From assembly GCA_965248695.1 (NCBI GenBank), contig CBDFKD010000002.1, positions 1,248,001 to 1,312,000 of the forward strand: a DNA stretch of 64,000 nucleotides, read 5' to 3'. Position numbers and translations under genes: made by a program. Source of the stretch: Acidobacteriota bacterium. Its GTDB lineage: Bacteria > Acidobacteriota > UBA890 > WLXD01. Every line of letters starts with the position of its first letter. The first letter of the stretch is position 1. Shown here one piece after another: positions 1,759 through 22,614 of the stretch. Below the pieces are notes generated by a model that saw nothing but the letters and a program-made list of their open reading frames with translations, ran no database searches and was not told the origin of the DNA.

Positions 1759-3338
1759 ATGAGCAAACCAAATCCAGAACAGACCGTCAGTTCCAGCCGA
1801 GCAATCCACACCGACGCCTTGATCATCGGATCCGGTTTCGGTGGAGCCGCACCGGCCTTGCGCTTGGCCGAAGCCGGCCTTCGCGTGCACGTGGTGGAGA
1901 GGGGGCCGCGAATCGGCGCAGGGCAGATCCGTCGGACACAAGATCCGAACTACCTGCGCGAGCACATTCGAAGCACCGGAGGCGACGAGATAAGCCTCAC
2001 CCATGTGAACGCCTATGGGGGTGCCGCGCCGTTCTACGAGATGGTGTCGCTACGATCGCCGGCCGCAGCTTTCCGTCAGCGATCGGAGACGGGAACGCGG
2101 CTGTGGCCGGACGGCCTGGATCGCGCCGCACTCGACCTCTACTACGCCCGCGCCGAGCAGACCATGGGCGTACGGCAGCTCGAAAGCAACCGGATCCCGA
2201 AGACCGGTCAGGTGTTCGCGCAGTTGATGCAGGATGCCGGCCACGATTGCACGCGTCTGCCGATGGCGATTGGCAACTGTGTCGGCTCGGGGTTCTGTGT
2301 GACCGGCTGTGTATTCGGCGCGAAGCGCGGACCGGATATGACGTACCTGCCGCGGGCAGAGGCGGCCGGCGCCGAGATTCGCACGGGTTGGGTGGCGCGA
2401 GCCATCCGGCCGCTTCGCGGCGCCGAGGACGCACCTGGCGGCGGACCGATCGAGGACGTTCCCTACCGCTATGACGTGGTGTGCGTCGAAGCCGATGCCG
2501 ATCCGGCTCGCTACCGACGCGTTACATATCGGACCAAGTTGCTGATCCTGGCCTCGGGCACTGTTGGAACCGCAGGTCTCCTGTTGCGCAACCGGGACAC
2601 GTTGCGGCACATGAGTCGGCATGTCGGTCGCAACGTTGCCCTCAACGTCAGCTCGAAGGTAGTGGCGTTGCTGCCCTCGTCGTACCCCGATGTGGACAAC
2701 TTCAGCGGCCAGTCGATCCCAGGGGTCGTCAGCTACTCGTTGCTCGAATCGCACGGCATCGTGACCTTCCCGGCCAAACCGCTGCCGGTGCAGTTGCTGG
2801 CTTCGGCTCGCTTGCGCGTAGAGGCGGAGGAGCATCGCGGCGAGTACTGGGGACCCGACAACGTGGCGTTCATGAAACGGTACCGTCGCCGAGCGCTCGT
2901 TCTGGTCGGCCTGGCGGTGGCGCCGCCGCTGGCGGAGATCCGCTGCCGCCCGGGCGAAGGGGTGCAACCGGACAAGCTGAGCGTTCGCGTTCAGAGCGAG
3001 TTGGCGCTCGAAGTGATGCAGCGACGCTGCGGGAGTTGCTGCGCAGTGCCGGATGCCAGCTCGTCGACTTGACGCTGACGAAGCTGGACGGATCGGCGAA
3101 AGGGAAGCGCCAGTTCGGTGGTGCGCACCACGTCGGTTCGTGCCGCATGGGTGCCTCCGCCGCCGAAGGCGCGGTGGACAGCGCCGGCGAACTGTTCGGG
3201 CATCCCGGGATTCATGTCACGGACGGGTCGGCGATCCCGGCCGCGCCCGGCGTTAACCCGAGCCTCACGATTCTCGCCAACGCGGAGCGCATCGCCGAGA
3301 CGCTTTGTGCTCGCTACACGACCGGAGAGAGAACATGA
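1759..3338 (+). pseudogene. GMC-family FAD oxidoreductase (cholesterol-oxidase-like), frameshifted near 2990-3030
   Basis: ORF 1759-3072 has IIGSGFGG..VVERG and the C..SGFCVTGC..GAK motif. The C-terminal GMC motifs (AHHVGSCRMG, TDGSAIP..GVNPSLTILANAERIA) are in another frame ending at 3338. May be a real frameshift or a sequencing error. Confidence 0.8.
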
Positions 3339-7519: not shown

Positions 7520-10161
7520 CAGGAGCCGTCCGTCGGCACTAGCTGGTTCAGCTCGTCGAACCAGTTGAGCACCAGGTGCGGCTGCGCCGGCTCGGTGGGC
7601 GCCAAGGCAATCACGAACCGCAGCGTCGAAGACACGTCCCACTCGCTTCCCACTCCCTCCACGACGAGTTCAGCCGTTGATGTCGTGAGGTCGTTTCCCT
7701 CGATCACGTCGACGACGAACACGCGGTCGCCGGATTGGTAAAAGAGCTGCTGCCCGTTGTCGGACCAGCGAGGACGTGTGCCGCCGGTCGTCGTGACTTT
7801 CCATTCGTACGCGGCCGGCCCTGCCGGATAGGGTGTGACGTAGATCTCCGAGCGTCCCGTTCTGTCGGACGCGAAGGCCAGATGCCGCCCATCGGGGGAA
7901 AAGCTCGGAGTCTCCTCGTCGGCAGTTGACGTCAGGAACGGGGTCCCGCCGTCGGAGGCGTCGATGGGGTACACCCAGACGTCGCGACTATGGTCGGAAC
8001 TTTGAGTCACGGCGAGCACATCGTCCGGCGACCATGAGAGGTTCTGTTTATAGTCGGGCCCGACGACGACTTCGCGCTCCGGACCGCTACCGTTAGCAGC
8101 GCGGACAAAGACGTCGCCGGAGCCGAGCCGCTCCGACACATACGCCACCCGACTCCCGTCCGGCGAGAAGACAGGGTAGTGATCCCAGCCAGCACCCTGA
8201 CCGATGGGAACACGGTCTTCGCGTACCAGATCGTGCACCCAGACCTCCTCGCCCTCGACAGGGTCGACGATCGCCGAGGCAACATGTCGCCCGTCGGGCG
8301 ACAGGGCGATGTCCTGGTACTCCACTTCGGGGTCGCCGATCGGACGTATGCCGTCGTCGAAGTCGATGCGGATCAGGCGTCCTCGCGGTGCGAGCGCACG
8401 CGTCAGATACGCTAGCGACCCGTCGGCGGTAAAGGCGTAGGCGGCGGTCCCCTGCGCTGCGTTGGTCAGTACGTTGTCGAGCACCTGGACGGACTCGCCG
8501 ACGGCCAGCGTCTCCGGGTCGAAAGGAGCTGCCATCAGCACGTTCTCACGCACGTAGATCAGATGTCCGCTGGGGGCGAAGCTCGGCGCGAAGCCACGGC
8601 CAACTAGCAAGGTTCGACGCCCAGTCGACAACGACCGGACCGCGATTCGCCAGTCTGTATCCCAGAACCCGTGCAGCACGTGATCCCCGTCCGGTAGCAA
8701 GGACGCAAAGCTGTGCCCGATCTCGTCGTCCTGGAGCCCCAGCAGCGGCGCCGGCGTTCCACCTGACGCGGGGACGTGCCGCACCATGCCGCCGAACCCA
8801 GTGGAAAACAGAATCGTGTCCCCGGTTGTCCAAGAAACGGAGGTGACTCGTTCGGTGATCGCCCCCGGGATAGCTTCCGGCCGGCCTCCTCCCTGGGGGA
8901 CCAGGGTTAGGCGGTTGTTGACCGCGTAGAAGCCCAGCTGGCCCGAAGGAGAGTAGAAGGGCGCGACGCCGCCGTCGGTGCCGGGAATCGGCTCGATGTC
9001 GCCGGTACTCAGATCGAGGACCTGCAATGAGCTGCCTTCCGTTGCGAACACGAGTCTTTGCCCATCCGGTGAGATTGCGATCTTCGAGTTCTCGTTGTGC
9101 GGGCGCTCATACACCCCCTCGACCGTCGCCAGAGCAAGATGCCGCGTTGGGCTCGTGTCCGGAGCTGTATCAGGCGAGCGCGTAAGCAACACGGTCATCA
9201 CGGCCGCGAGCGCGGCAGCCGCGACACCGATCGCCAGATGTGACAACCCGAGCTTCCGCTCTGAGTCGGGGGCCCTCGTTGCCACGCCAGTCGTCCCGGC
9301 GCGCACATCGACGCTCAGGCGGCGAAGGTCGACGGCGAGGTCGGCCGCCGACTGATAGCGGTGTGCGCGGTCCTTGGCCAGGCACTTGGAGACGATCCAT
9401 TGAAGCTGTGCCGGCGCATCGGCTGCCACTTCCGTCACCGGAGTCGGTTCCGCGTGCCCGATACGGTGCAGTGTGTCGTGCAGGCTTTCGCCAGCGAACG
9501 GCGGTATGCCGGACACCGTCTCGTAGAGCACGCAGCCGCAGGCGAACAGATCGGCGCGATGATCGATCTCCACCGTTCCGTCGACCTGTTCGGGCGCCAT
9601 GTACCCGGCGGTACCCATCACCTGCCCGGCCACAGTGCCGACCATCGTCGGCGACTGCGTGGCACCGCCTTCCCCTGCGCTGGAGACCTCGATCAGCTTT
9701 GCCAGTCCGAAATCCAAGACTTTGGCGTGCCGTTCCCCGGTGACGAAGATGTTCTCGGGCTTGATATCCCGGTGAACGATCCCCGCTGCGTGCGCGGCGG
9801 CGAGTGCCTCGGCGATCTGGGTGGTGAAGTCGAGAGCCTTGGGCAGCGGGAGTGCGCCTCGCCTGAGTGGCTCGCGCAGCGTCTCGCCCTCCAGGTACTC
9901 CTGCACCATGAAATGGGTGCCGTCCTCGGTGCCGACATCGAAGACCGACGCTATGTGCGGATGGTTCAGAGCGGCGGCAGCGCGGGCCTCCTGCTCGAAG
10001 CGGGCCAGTCGCTCGGGGTCAGAGGCAAACTCGGCGGGCAGCACCTTGATGGCCACCTTGCGGCCCAAGCGCGTGTCCTGTGCCAGGTACACCACGCCCA
10101 TACCGCCAGCACCGAGCTGCTCGGTGATCTCGTAGGGGCCTAGTTTGGTGCCGGGTTCCAT
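7519..10161 (-). CDS. Ser/Thr kinase with TM helix and C-terminal TolB/PD40 beta-propellers
   Basis: [28 protein letters not shown]; repeated (F/W)SPDG motifs. Confidence 0.93.
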
Positions 10162-20270: not shown

Positions 20271-20422
20271 GGTGCTCTCGCAGGAGGCGTGTTTGATCGG
20301 ACGTGATCTCCACGGTTGTCTACGCACCAACGATAGGCCACCATCCCGAACATCTCGACCCAACATCGGCTCAGAGAGGCCAACGTGAGCAACGGGCTGG
20401 TCGCAAGGTCCCGGGTAGTGTC

Positions 20423-21253
20423 CTAATTTGAACCTGCTTCGTCGATCAGCCGACCGATTGACCAAAGCGAGCCCGTCACCCCGGCTTCCATAGCGGGGGT
20501 GACTCGCAGAGTCTGGTGGATGCGCACGAAGTTATAGTGAGCGAAGTGCAGCGCCACGGCCGCGCGCAGGTTCTCGACCTTCTTGCTGAACGCGTTTGTT
20601 AGGCGAGTAAATCTGCGCATGTTCATGCGCATGGTCAGGTTCTGCCGCTCGATGTGGCTGGTGCAGATCTTGTCTGGTGCTGGCTGGCCGACGATCGCCC
20701 TGCGACGGGTGCTCGTGACGTGCGGTGGGCCGTACCTACCCGGACCGATTGGCTCGGCTTCGTAGCACTTTACGATCTGACCGTAGTCGACGTACGGACC
20801 GAATGCCTGCTCGGTCGCTTCGACGTAGGCGGCCAGGGCGTCGGAGGAAAGCTGCACGCGGTTGGCGAGGCGCGAAGCGACATCGCCCATGAACGAGGTA
20901 GCGGTTTCTAGGTCGCGCTTGCCGACGCGAAAAGCTGGGACGATCTTCGATTCCGGGTCCAGCGCAACGAACGTCCAGAAGTCACCCAAGCAGCGCGGGT
21001 CATCGGAGAGCTTTAGGTGGCGCTGTTTCTTCCCGACATAGGCCCAGATCTCATCAACCTGAATCTGCTCGCAAGGAAGGTTCTGCATCCGGTCATCCAT
21101 CGCCGCCGCGCAACCGCTCCCGACGCGGACGAGCAACCGCATGATGGTGTCGCGGTGAACGCCGGTCATGCGCTCTGTCGCGCGAATCGAGCAACCCTCG
21201 ACCAAGCATCGGATGACCGCTTCTTGCTTCTCTCGCTTCAGGACGTTAGCCAT
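20423..21253 (-). CDS. IS1-family DDE transposase (single ORF, HTH, no N-terminal Zn finger)
   Basis: [21 protein letters not shown]; [36 protein letters not shown]. The stop codon lies inside the left TIR. Confidence 0.9.
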
Positions 21254-21367
21254 GTTGTTCTCCTTAGCATGGAGAACAATCTAGCATACAGTCGGAGATT
21301 AGCCAACTTCCTGCTTGACTAAATTCGGGATTATATGCGAGATTAGTCTGGAAGTGGGGCGGACAAC

Positions 21368-21463
21368 GGAAGGTGACCCATTGGATGGTCCAGTAACGGG
21401 GTTTACACTCGGAGGGCTCGCTGTCACCGCAGCGAAGGGGTTCGACTCCCTCACCTTCCGCTA
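21368..21463 (+). tRNA. Non-canonical tRNA-like RNA with a 9/3 cloverleaf (allo-tRNA-like); anticodon arm degenerate
   Basis: Acceptor GGAAGGTGA/TCACCTTCC (9 bp), discriminator G, then CTA. T arm GGG-TTCGACT-CCC. Long variable arm TCGCTGT-CACC-GCAGCGA. D arm ATTGG-ATGGT-CCAGT. Anticodon arm CGGG-GTTTACA-CTCG. Confidence 0.7.
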
Positions 21464-21513
21464 TCAGCATCCCATGGAAGGATAAGTGTAGCATCGACAG
21501 GAGGGCCTATCGA

Positions 21514-22293
21514 ATGGCGAAATCGCGTAGTCCTCGGAAGCCGTCAATTGACTTAGAGCGCGCAGTGGAGCTGGCCACGATACTTCACAGGCAGATTCTC
21601 AATCATTCTTCCGCCAAGGAAACCGTTCTGCAGCACTGGGGATACTCGCCGAAGAGCAGCAACGGGCTTGTGGCATTCGGAGCGTTGCGTCAGTTCGGAC
21701 TGATCGACCAGAGGCGCGGCCAAGACGCGAAACTTAGCCCCTTGGCTCTCGAGATTGTGCTGGATGAGCGGCCCGATTCTCCCGAACGCGACGAAGCTGT
21801 CTGTAGGGCAGCTTTGAATCCGATACTCCACCAGGAACTGTGGAGCAAGTACGCCGGTAAGCTACCTTCAGACGCTGAAATCAAGTTGTACTTGCAGCGT
21901 GACAAGAGCTTCACTCCGAAGGGTGCCGAAGATTTCATCAGCCAGTTTAGGGCAACAATCGCATATGCTAATCTGGACGCATCGGGCAACGGGGCCGAAG
22001 AAACAAGCCCCGAGCAACGGGAGCAAGACGAGTTGATCCCTTCCGAATCATCCGCAAACAGACAGCCCGCTACGCCACCGCGCGTGCCCCTAGAGGGCGT
22101 AGCGCAGATAGACCAGGCGACCTTCCCGCTCGATGAAGGGCCAGCGGTTCTGCAATGGCCAGCTGATCTCAGTCTCGCCAGCGTCGAAGAGTTCGAGGCC
22201 TGGCTTGATCTGGTGAAGAAGAAGGTCCGCCGTGCGTCAACAGCCCGTTCACGGCAGCCGGATACTGAGGATGACCGAAGTAGCGCCGACTGA
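21514..22293 (+). CDS. Hypothetical passenger protein, possible winged-helix N-terminus
   Basis: 259-aa ORF with RBS GGAGG; RSP..PSIDLE.A...WGYS..S..G..ALRQFGLI pattern. Function unknown. Confidence 0.7.
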   Translation: MAKSRSPRKPSIDLERAVELATILHRQILNHSSAKETVLQHWGYSPKSSNGLVAFGALRQFGLIDQRRGQDAKLSPLALEIVLDERPDSPERDEAVCRAALNPILHQELWSKYAGKLPSDAEIKLYLQRDKSFTPKGAEDFISQFRATIAYANLDASGNGAEETSPEQREQDELIPSESSANRQPATPPRVPLEGVAQIDQATFPLDEGPAVLQWPADLSLASVEEFEAWLDLVKKKVRRASTARSRQPDTEDDRSSAD

Positions 22294-22573
22294 GCTACAG
22301 CGCCACGTCGAGCGGCTGCACGGCTGCCACGCAGAGCACCAGAAGGCCGTAGCCGTCCGCGAGGAATTCCAGGGAGAGGTGGCTTGGGAAGGCGCGGTCC
22401 ATATCTACAGCCTCACGGACCATCCCTCAGCGACACGCTGCTACGCGTGGTCATCGCCCGTAGAGGGCTCCGAGAATCGCCGCTTTTACGCTGTATTGCA
22501 CACGGAGAGGGTTGATTCTCCTGTGAAGGCCGTCCGGGCGGCGATCGTAAGCGACCACGGGTCGCAAGCCTGA
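22271..22573 (+). CDS. Hypothetical 100-aa passenger protein
   Basis: RBS GAGG directly before ATG 22271; MTEVAPTELQRHVERLHGC...WEGAVHIYSLTDHPSATRCYAWSS...SPVKAVRAAI. Ends 7 nt before the right TIR. Confidence 0.75.
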   Translation: MTEVAPTELQRHVERLHGCHAEHQKAVAVREEFQGEVAWEGAVHIYSLTDHPSATRCYAWSSPVEGSENRRFYAVLHTERVDSPVKAVRAAIVSDHGSQA

Positions 22574-22614
22574 TTCCCGATTCAAATTAGGACACTACCA
22601 GGTCCCGCGGTGTC

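Follow-up and report, generated by a model that had tools for sequence, protein, structure and literature searches.

What use a mobile element might have for a tRNA that may read a stop codon is the question raised by a short segment of the genome of a soil-type Acidobacteriota bacterium (GenBank assembly GCA_965248695.1), in which a transposon carries a tRNA-shaped gene with the anticodon UUA. The gene lies at positions 21368-21460 of the window, the whole stretch of 64,000 nucleotides (nt) that was analysed (contig CBDFKD010000002.1, positions 1,248,001 to 1,312,000), within an element of the IS1 family of insertion sequences (IS). It is very probably a genuine, selectively maintained (9/3) allo-tRNA gene, with nine acceptor pairs and three T-stem pairs, that travels as cargo of the element. 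As to what the RNA does, the most likely reading, to which a probability of roughly 0.4 is given as a whole, is that it would act in trans as a serine-accepting weak ochre suppressor.

Allo-tRNAs are known mostly from metagenome fragments, and their main use has been as a chassis for genetic-code engineering; their natural role has been open since they were described in 2017. The window provides an intact UUA (9/3) allo-tRNA in a near-complete genome, inside a freshly inserted and precisely bounded IS1-family element, which makes it testable whether a mobile element spreads a stop-codon-reading tRNA and with what gain for the element.

The tRNA-like fold of the window copy

A first-pass annotation of the sequence had described a cloverleaf of 93 nt with a 9 base-pair (bp) acceptor stem, a 3 bp T stem, a long variable arm, a GG-containing D loop and a discriminator G, and all of these features are present in the body of the RNA, which is encoded by the + strand and ends at the discriminator G (Table 1). 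The approximately five extra nucleotides noticed ahead of the variable arm are also there, as GAGGG at 21412-21416, and the last three of them pair with an upstream CCC to form an extra 3 bp helix around the D and anticodon hairpins. The D arm of the window copy can be drawn with 5 bp and a 5 nt loop or with 6 bp and a 3 nt loop; those of its relatives have 6 bp and a tetraloop NGGU.

The minimum free energy (MFE) of the segment is -39.9 kcal/mol (z = -2.2), a stability reached by 2 of 200 shuffled sequences. The Rfam tRNA-Sec model (RF01852) aligns end to end, over 21368-21459, at 28.8 bits, the gathering value being 47 (E = 7.8e-4 on 351 nt and 0.003 genome-wide), and ARAGORN run at 95% thresholds reports a tRNA-Stop(tta) at 21368-21461. 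Default ARAGORN called no gene in the window, and Rfam searched at its gathering thresholds gave no match, the allo-tRNA being visible only with relaxed thresholds or with a purpose-built model. Taken alone, the window sequence makes a suggestive case for the fold, not a strong one.

A best Rfam match to tRNA-Sec, together with a T arm and a 3' acceptor strand that resemble those of tRNA-Ser(UGA) and selC of the phylum, could point to a variant selC or to the misreading of an ordinary tRNA-Ser, but this is barely credible. A selC gene was rejected on the UUA rather than UCA anticodon, the 9/3 rather than 8/5 fold and the score below the gathering value, with a true selC (70.2 bits) elsewhere in the genome besides four normal tRNA-Ser genes; a canonical class II tRNA-Ser was rejected because ARAGORN forces a 7/5 frame only with mismatches and calls a stop anticodon. 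The selC-like genes of this genome are two in number (L033/L088, C2:4678307-4678404, and L031/L086, C2:5559422-5559519): one is the intact 70.2-bit gene, and the second scores 44.9 bits, below the gathering value, with a damaged acceptor and D arm and an identical 3' half.

Homologues, covariation and the anticodon

The homologue set comprises 14 distinct sequences, 13 of which enter the model-fitted alignment. By BLAST, the element is single-copy in its own genome, and among 401 genomes of the phylum the sole real relative is found in a congeneric one (G005, 95% identical; the stretch compared falls within L051, an Acidobacteriota metagenome-assembled genome, MAG), 18 other genomes being matched through the T arm of a tRNA-Ser or selC gene or through short chance stretches. 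A pattern scan of sequence collections that specified the variable arm and the T arm only, leaving the anticodon free, returned eight metagenome stretches and one viral contig, which after the merging of duplicates (L076 = L080, L078 = L079 and L083 = L055) added six distinct sequences. A covariance model built from nine sequences led to the further members L058, L054, G072, G026 and G233, situated beside homologues of the neighbouring proteins. The family model matched 39 of 151 genomes of the phylum, a tally that takes in one match in the unpublished genome G057, on which no other result given here draws; the majority of these matches, at 43-56 bits, are selC-like, and seven that were checked with ARAGORN proved to be selC in six cases and tRNA-Ser in one. 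These searches sampled a single phylum, at 401 and 151 genomes, and scanned collections with a limited pattern, so that the frequencies given here hold within those samples alone. On the family model, the window copy reaches 100.8 bits, the family best being 107.3, and the relative L055 attains 47.7 bits on the tRNA-Sec model.

In the alignment of 13 sequences, 94.8% of the 403 pair cells form pairs, against 77.3% in shuffled alignments (none of 500 as high) and 47-52% in slid registers, and two-sided, compensatory changes occur in 24 of the 32 pairs. Because this alignment leans towards the model, the count was redone on a plain MAFFT alignment of nine sequences, in which 91.5% of the cells pair versus 83.2% after shuffling (0/500) and 48-54% in slid registers. 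Here, two-sided changes were found in 13 of the 32 pairs, and most of the signal comes from the acceptor stem, where six of the nine pairs are compensatory; the variable arm and the T stem are uninformative in this set, being fixed by the search pattern. Across the family, all six pairs of the D helix change on both sides, 97.7% of the variable-arm cells pair, and the T stem of G233 (L128) is GAG/CUC instead of GGG/CCC.

The ninth acceptor pair forms in 10 of 13 sequences and with three pair types (UA in six, AU in three and GC in one; unpaired in three), whereas the alternative pair of an 8/4 fold is mostly unpaired, forming in 4 of 11 sequences (GU in three and UA in one; unpaired in seven, with gaps in two others). 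The 8/4 fold was rejected for this reason, and the assignment to the 9/3 type of allo-tRNA, with its long variable arm and G73, was upheld. Covariation, seen across all six helices, supports the 9/3 fold and is decisive in showing that it did not arise by chance. Traits required of a functional tRNA are kept: the pairs G1-C72, G2-C71 and A3-U70 are invariant (13/13), G73 is present in 14 of 14 sequences, the T loop follows UUCNANU, the D loop keeps its GG and the acceptor branch has 12 bp.

The same comparison fixes the anticodon. The outer pair of the anticodon stem (34-48) is CG in four sequences, AU in three, GC in two and UA in two, and since the 4 bp stem that closes a 7 nt loop covaries, the loop G-U-U-U-A-C-A presents UUA. 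The first-pass annotation had named this register, with its CGGG/CTCG stem, as the best-pairing one, next to a poorly pairing second one that gives UAC; the former proved to be correct, and the latter was rejected because the covarying stem fixes the 7 nt loop. Stem covariation and conservation of the anticodon had been named as the things to look for in homologous elements; the former was found, and as to the latter UUA occurs in 8 of the 14 distinct sequences, alongside CUA in two, CAA in two, UCU in one and UAU in one. The loop N-UUUACA is likewise present in 8 of the 14, at 52-95% identity to the window copy where measured, and these sequences were recovered with the anticodon-free pattern or via neighbouring proteins.

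Mobility and conservation of the allo-tRNA gene

The carrier is a 2186 bp IS1-family element (20414-22599) that contains a transposase gene, the allo-tRNA on the opposite strand, an open reading frame (ORF) of 259 amino acids (aa) and an overlapping ORF of 100 aa. The transposase matches Pfam DDE_Tnp_IS1 (PF03400) with 37.1 bits (cut-off 24.1), and its best NCBIfam match is transpos_IS1, with 70.5 bits and under the cut-off of 100. Together with this gene, the inverted repeats of 19 nt and the target duplication of 8 bp that enclose the allo-tRNA bear out its earlier placement inside a transposon. Allo-tRNAs are also enclosed by inverted repeats and duplications of 8-9 bp at six further independent insertions, seven in all (GAC[C/T]GGGC in L051/G005, CGACGACG in L055, GCCTGTTC in L054, TATTTTTC in L058, GCGTCCCG in G026 and AATTCAACC in G072), whose hosts include Acidobacteriota, a Thermodesulfobacteriota MAG and a Pirellulales MAG.

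These elements follow two architectures. In the first, the transposase diverges from the allo-tRNA, which is followed by the 259-aa ORF and then by the 100-aa ORF, the allo-tRNA being flipped in L054 and L058. In the second, the transposase is followed by the 100-aa ORF and by a small ORF that is ribbon-helix-helix-like by eye only, with a convergent allo-tRNA and more cargo beyond; the 259-aa ORF is absent.

The placement of the gene bears on the possibility that it serves its neighbours in cis, as a compact promoter and RNase P/RNase Z site by which the mRNA of the passenger (or transposase) gene would receive its 5' end and be insulated from outside transcription. The tRNA of the window, G005, L055 and L077 directly precedes the 259-aa ORF and shares its strand, the intervening spacer of 50 nt is highly conserved, and no terminator-like site was called on the + strand between 20350 and 22700; a tRNA-like gene precedes the transposase, on the transposase strand, in L054, L058, L123 and L057. 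On the other hand, in G026, G072 and G233 the allo-tRNA converges on the neighbouring operon with no gene downstream, and owing to this convergence it could act only in trans in those elements. RNase P, moreover, requires only an acceptor/T minihelix, and a role in cis does not account for why the anticodon loop, the D hairpin and the variable arm are conserved. The flipped and convergent arrangements weaken this explanation, which is improbable, and a processing signal for the passenger operon, one of the roles that the first-pass annotation had offered, is not the general role of the gene.

The window element was compared with the G005 element segment by segment. The transposase genes are 93.6% identical, the spacer between transposase and tRNA 51.6% (with 43 gap columns), the allo-tRNAs 94.8%, the 50 nt spacer after the tRNA 96%, the 259-aa ORFs 74.1% and the 100-aa ORFs 86.1%. 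The two tRNAs differ at five places, namely an anticodon-stem G.U replaced by G-C, three bases of the variable loop and one of the T loop. Contigs of two other studies, which attest presence and not expression, carry relatives of the tRNA-ORF region that differ by the same change of G.U to G-C, by changes in the D loop and by one change in the variable loop. From these sequences, the allo-tRNA appears to be under purifying selection and to move with the transposase.

A hitch-hiking or decaying copy devoid of present function would fit the G.U pair of the window copy at a place where relatives have G-C, its position below the ARAGORN default and Rfam gathering thresholds, and the optional nature of the tRNA, which is present at only 5 of the 15 places with a 100-aa ORF (found in 13 of the 401 genomes); an allo-tRNA(UAU) pseudogene overlapping a transposon-related ORF has, moreover, been described by Mukai et al. 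(2017; PMC5389517). Against this stand a family-model score close to the family best with all helices intact, a conservation of the tRNA far above that of the flanking spacer, with differences confined to loops or to G.U replaced by G-C, and the persistence of the family over seven independent insertions and several phyla. The score and the pattern of selection together weaken the pseudogene explanation, and decay, which had been among the options first listed, is thus slightly less probable still than a role in cis.

Possible decoding by the allo-tRNA and its alternatives

In the mechanism favoured here, the RNA would be transcribed inside the element, its 5' end would be trimmed by RNase P at 21368, and CCA would be added by the host CCA-adding enzyme, as for most tRNAs of the genome. 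The host seryl-tRNA synthetase would then charge the RNA by way of the long variable arm and G73, and the charged RNA would, in trans, weakly suppress UAA and perhaps, by U34 wobble, also UAG through the insertion of serine.

The 3'-terminal CCA is encoded in 10 of the 59 host tRNA genes called by ARAGORN, and the usual tail of a host tRNA gene is the discriminator followed by C and T, as in the allo-tRNA. The trailer CTA, which had been noted in place of CCA, is accordingly not a defect, CCA being absent from the other 49 of the 59 genes. The four long tRNA-Ser genes of the host also have G73. In this genome, with a G+C content of 65%, UAA appears to be the rarest stop codon: by a crude count over all six frames, non-coding frames included, TGA closes 1456, TAG 1033 and TAA 189 of the 2678 open frames of at least 400 codons. 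According to PMC5389517, 9/3 allo-tRNAs are processed, charged with serine or alanine and used by the ribosomes of Escherichia coli, including species with a natural UUA after conversion to CUA, and a long variable arm with G73 or U73 is argued there to give serine identity.

Several features of the family and of its carriers weigh against efficient decoding. C occupies position 37 in all UUA members and in the UCU member, whereas a purine is nearly always found at this position in elongator tRNAs, and a modified A37 in those that read codons starting with U, so that decoding is possibly poor. The anticodon stem consists of four Watson-Crick pairs flanked by conserved purine-purine oppositions (RA/RA), which could extend the anticodon stack to six layers. 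The bases ahead of the variable arm read R-A-G-G-G in the subfamily, and the helix formed by CCC and GGG (CG/CG/CG in 10-11 of the 12 sequences with letters there, UCG/CGA in L055) is conserved, its covariation coming from L055 alone; with this extra helix the RNA adopts a five-helix layout. The UAU member L058 belongs to the same subfamily, has the same CCC/GGG helix and resides in an IS1 element of the same kind, and for the UAU group 'possible five-stem-junction structures' are mentioned in PMC5389517. Finally, in the genes of the UUA-bearing elements TAA accounts for 4 of 18 stops, being neither avoided nor enriched, and no in-frame stop that would need suppression was found in the element genes.

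Some of these points lend weight to the main rival of the suppressor, a tRNA-shaped RNA that is processed and perhaps charged and that serves the element otherwise than by decoding, possibly as a regulator, as a decoy or antidote for toxins directed at tRNAs or ribosomes, or as part of an addiction module. This rival is a serious contender, if a somewhat less likely one than suppression. The conservation of C37, the short anticodon stem and the CCC/GGG helix across the subfamily would be in keeping with it, as would the lack of TAA avoidance, and the strictly conserved UUUACA loop could be a recognition site rather than an anticodon. In G026 (L137), genes for a Gp49/DUF891 (RelE/HigB-type) toxin and an HTH_3 antitoxin lie at 8494-9496 within the IS1 element, and 170 nt separate the start of the toxin gene from the divergent allo-tRNA(UUA). 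The inactive, transposon-associated allo-tRNA(UAU) group described in PMC5389517 points in the same direction. On the other hand, charging and delivery by EF-Tu call for the acceptor pairs that are invariant here, for G73, for the variable arm and for the 12 bp branch, a full set for which a mere decoy or regulator would have no obvious need, and a family whose close relatives switch between UUA, CUA, UCU, UAU and CAA fits the decoding of rare codons better than a fixed protein-binding site. No partner was found for such an RNA either, the 259-aa and 100-aa ORFs having no informative match and the former being absent from the second architecture. The serine-inserting suppressor acting in trans thus remains the preferred, if tentative, account of the RNA.

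Other features of the carrier element

The features of the element are collected in Table 1. The hairpin upstream of the transposase gene, which covers its ribosome-binding site (RBS), probably provides translational control of the transposase, in a manner resembling the RBS-sequestering control of other insertion sequences; the same hairpin, with one change, is present in the G005 copy. A consensus promoter scan returned no site and did not call the candidate listed ahead of the tRNA, and at the same place L055 has TTGACA-17-TAGATT, a better promoter match.

Table 1. Features of the allo-tRNA gene and of its IS1-family carrier, in window positions.
Feature	Position	Strand	Description
Target-site duplication, left copy	20406-20413	.	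AGGTCCCG; 8 bp, read directly
Left terminal inverted repeat	20414-20432	+	GGTAGTGTCCTAATTTGAA; 19 nt, perfect match to right repeat
IS1-family transposase	20423-21253	-	276 aa; TAG stop inside left inverted repeat
Hairpin upstream of transposase	21255-21279	-	TTGTTCTCC/GGAGAACAA, 9 bp; covers transposase Shine-Dalgarno; start ATG 21253-21251
Promoter candidate	21315-21344	+	Weak, sigma-70-like, TTGACT-18 nt-GAGATT; 8/12 consensus; ~24 nt upstream of tRNA 5' end
Acceptor stem	21368-21376 / 21451-21459	+	GGAAGGTGA / TCACCTTCC; 9 bp, perfect pairing
CCC linker	21377-21379	+	Complementary to GGG 21414-21416; pairing in MFE fold
D hairpin	21380-21394	+	AUUGG-AUGGU-CCAGU; GG within loop AUGGU
Anticodon arm	21397-21411	+	Stem CGGG/CUCG, loop GUUUACA
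Anticodon	21403-21405	+	UUA; C at position 37 = 21406
Variable arm	21418-21435	+	7 bp (21418-21424 with 21429-21435), loop CACC
T arm	21438-21450	+	GGG 21438-21440 / CCC 21448-21450, loop TTCGACT (UUCGACU) 21441-21447
Discriminator	21460	+	G
Trailer	21461-21463	+	CTA
Conserved spacer, tRNA to first passenger ORF	21464-21513	+	
Passenger ORF, 259 aa	21514-22293	+	No known family; N-terminal part winged-helix-like
Passenger ORF, 100 aa	22271-22573	+	No known family; travels with this transposase lineage
Right terminal inverted repeat	22581-22599	-	19 nt, perfect
Target-site duplication, right copy	22600-22607	.	AGGTCCCG

For the 259-aa and 100-aa ORFs, searches of Pfam, NCBIfam and PADLOC gave no match, with no known toxin or antitoxin family among them. 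Foldseek against the PDB gave no clear structural match (lowest E 0.37 with the 100-aa and 0.03 with the 259-aa protein), the best Z score obtained for the passenger proteins with VIA-align was 5.6, and PDB profile searches returned no match below E 0.5. Cargo found in sister elements includes a ClpP-like SDH protease (L055) and an OMP-decarboxylase-family gene (L054).

Several arrangements were seen around the sister elements. In L136 (G072), a second IS end at 3195-3241, with three mismatches to the repeat, lies 9 nt past the right end of the element and suggests tandem or nested insertions. In L133 (G334), a sister element has its transposase split and its 100-aa ORF truncated, and group II intron domains (RF02001 with 122.9 bits, RF01998 and RF00029) lie beside them at 791-1423. 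L123 (G264, ~2750-2880) and L057 (~1557-1640), both of the first architecture and without an allo-tRNA, carry a class-I-like tRNA-shaped sequence ending in CCA that shares the strand of the transposase and separates this gene from the 259-aa ORF; in L057 the sequence contains CUUUACAC. The metagenome contig L079 carries at 895-1196 a tandem of three tRNA-type genes, the first an allo-tRNA with UCU and the second and third class II tRNAs with UUA and CUA anticodons, both with A37. Among homologues of the 259-aa ORF from other phyla (L054-L075), several have a tRNA or tRNA-like sequence on the other strand at a distance of ~150-300 nt, for example a normal tRNA-Ala in L056 and partial or irregular sequences in L061, L066 and L075, the relaxed ARAGORN calls among them being uncontrolled for false positives.

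Irregular tRNA-like sequences elsewhere in the genome

Four other loci of the same genome have a clear homologue of the IS1-like transposase (46-60% identical, one of them a fragment): L006/L008 (C1:914-2050), L005/L007 (C2:5220443-5221579), L004 (C2:2238653-2239808) and C2:1400778-1401892. Within ~1 kb of each, ARAGORN reports an irregular 'tRNA' of 75-76 nt with a Ser GGA or CGA anticodon and no long variable arm, two of them upstream of the transposase and on its strand. No convincing inverted repeats were found around the other IS1-like copies of the genome. A fifth, short match to the IS1 transposase, of 35 aa (C2:5219315-5219419), coincides with L003 (C2:5219337-5219416), where 80 nt are 100% identical to window positions 20574-20653, inside the transposase gene; a separate 80 nt contig of run X1 covers the same stretch, and further odd tRNA calls fall in the L003 region, a 72 nt Arg(cct) and an 87 nt Ala(tgc).

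Significance

A wider proposal, which is doubtful at present, is that allo-tRNAs with anticodons for stop or rare codons are a dedicated working part of an IS1-family lineage that spreads across phyla, used in trans for the benefit of the element. The benefit might then be an addiction or stress switch based on mistranslation, or an antidote to toxins of the RelE/Gp49 type, which cut mRNA in a ribosome-dependent way and of which at least one such element has a copy. If the proposal holds, it would extend to the irregular tRNA-like genes that adjoin IS1-like transposases elsewhere in the genome, and a transposon family would be mobilizing tRNAs that alter the genetic code between bacteria. Should the RNA decode, leaky stops or codon reassignment could arise naturally as such elements pass horizontally between genomes.

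Comparison with known systems

The window RNA is a member of a rare class that has already been described, since it has the 9/3 fold and the serine-type features of that class and its main traits are found in PMC5389517. That paper already reports UUA anticodons in 9/3 allo-tRNAs and names Acidobacteria among the hosts, connects allo-tRNAs with transposable elements and with toxin-antitoxin systems, and describes polycistrons of irregular tRNAs, points that are repeated in a review of 2020 (PMC7609411). The tandem of L079 resembles these published polycistrons of irregular suppressor-like tRNAs. What appears to be new is that the IS1-family carrier is exactly delimited, down to its target duplications, that it recurs at seven insertions and in two architectures with companion ORFs of 100 and 259 aa, and that CCC/GGG and C37 form a conserved signature, although some of this may overlap with the supplementary material of PMC5389517. 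A literature search, which did not extend to those supplements, found no paper that pairs 'allo-tRNA' with 'transposase', and none that joins 'IS1 family', 'tRNA-like' and 'insertion sequence'.

With the (9/3) allo-tRNAs, the window RNA shares the 9+3 branch, the long variable arm, the discriminator G, the sub-threshold match to tRNA-Sec and apparently the long stem of the D hairpin, as well as the Acidobacteriota host, the UUA anticodon and the neighbourhood of mobile elements and toxin-antitoxin genes. An anticodon stem longer than the canonical one and a tRNA-Sec-like D arm, with a long stem and a tetraloop, are among the features described for allo-tRNAs in the same source (PMC5389517). 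In contrast, the window RNA has four Watson-Crick pairs in its anticodon stem, the CCC/GGG pairing and C37, it has A3-U70 where the UUA species tested in PMC5389517 has G3:U70, and its carrier is an exactly bounded IS1-family element with inverted repeats and a target duplication. The published allo-tRNA(UAU) group finds a counterpart in L058, a UAU member of the same covariance family, from which the window copy differs in having UUA, with its helices intact. With bacterial tRNA-Sec (selC), the window RNA has in common an acceptor/T branch of 12-13 bp, G73, the length of the variable arm and apparently that of the D stem, but it is 9/3 rather than 8/5, carries UUA rather than UCA and scores 28.8 bits against a gathering value of 47.

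The ends of IS1 elements follow the consensus GGnnnTG, and a subgroup of the family bears passenger genes. The carrier shares with IS1-family insertion sequences the DDE_Tnp_IS1 transposase, repeats that start with GGTAGTG and duplications of 8-9 bp, and it differs from the passenger-carrying IS1 elements in the recurrent tRNA-type nature of its cargo.

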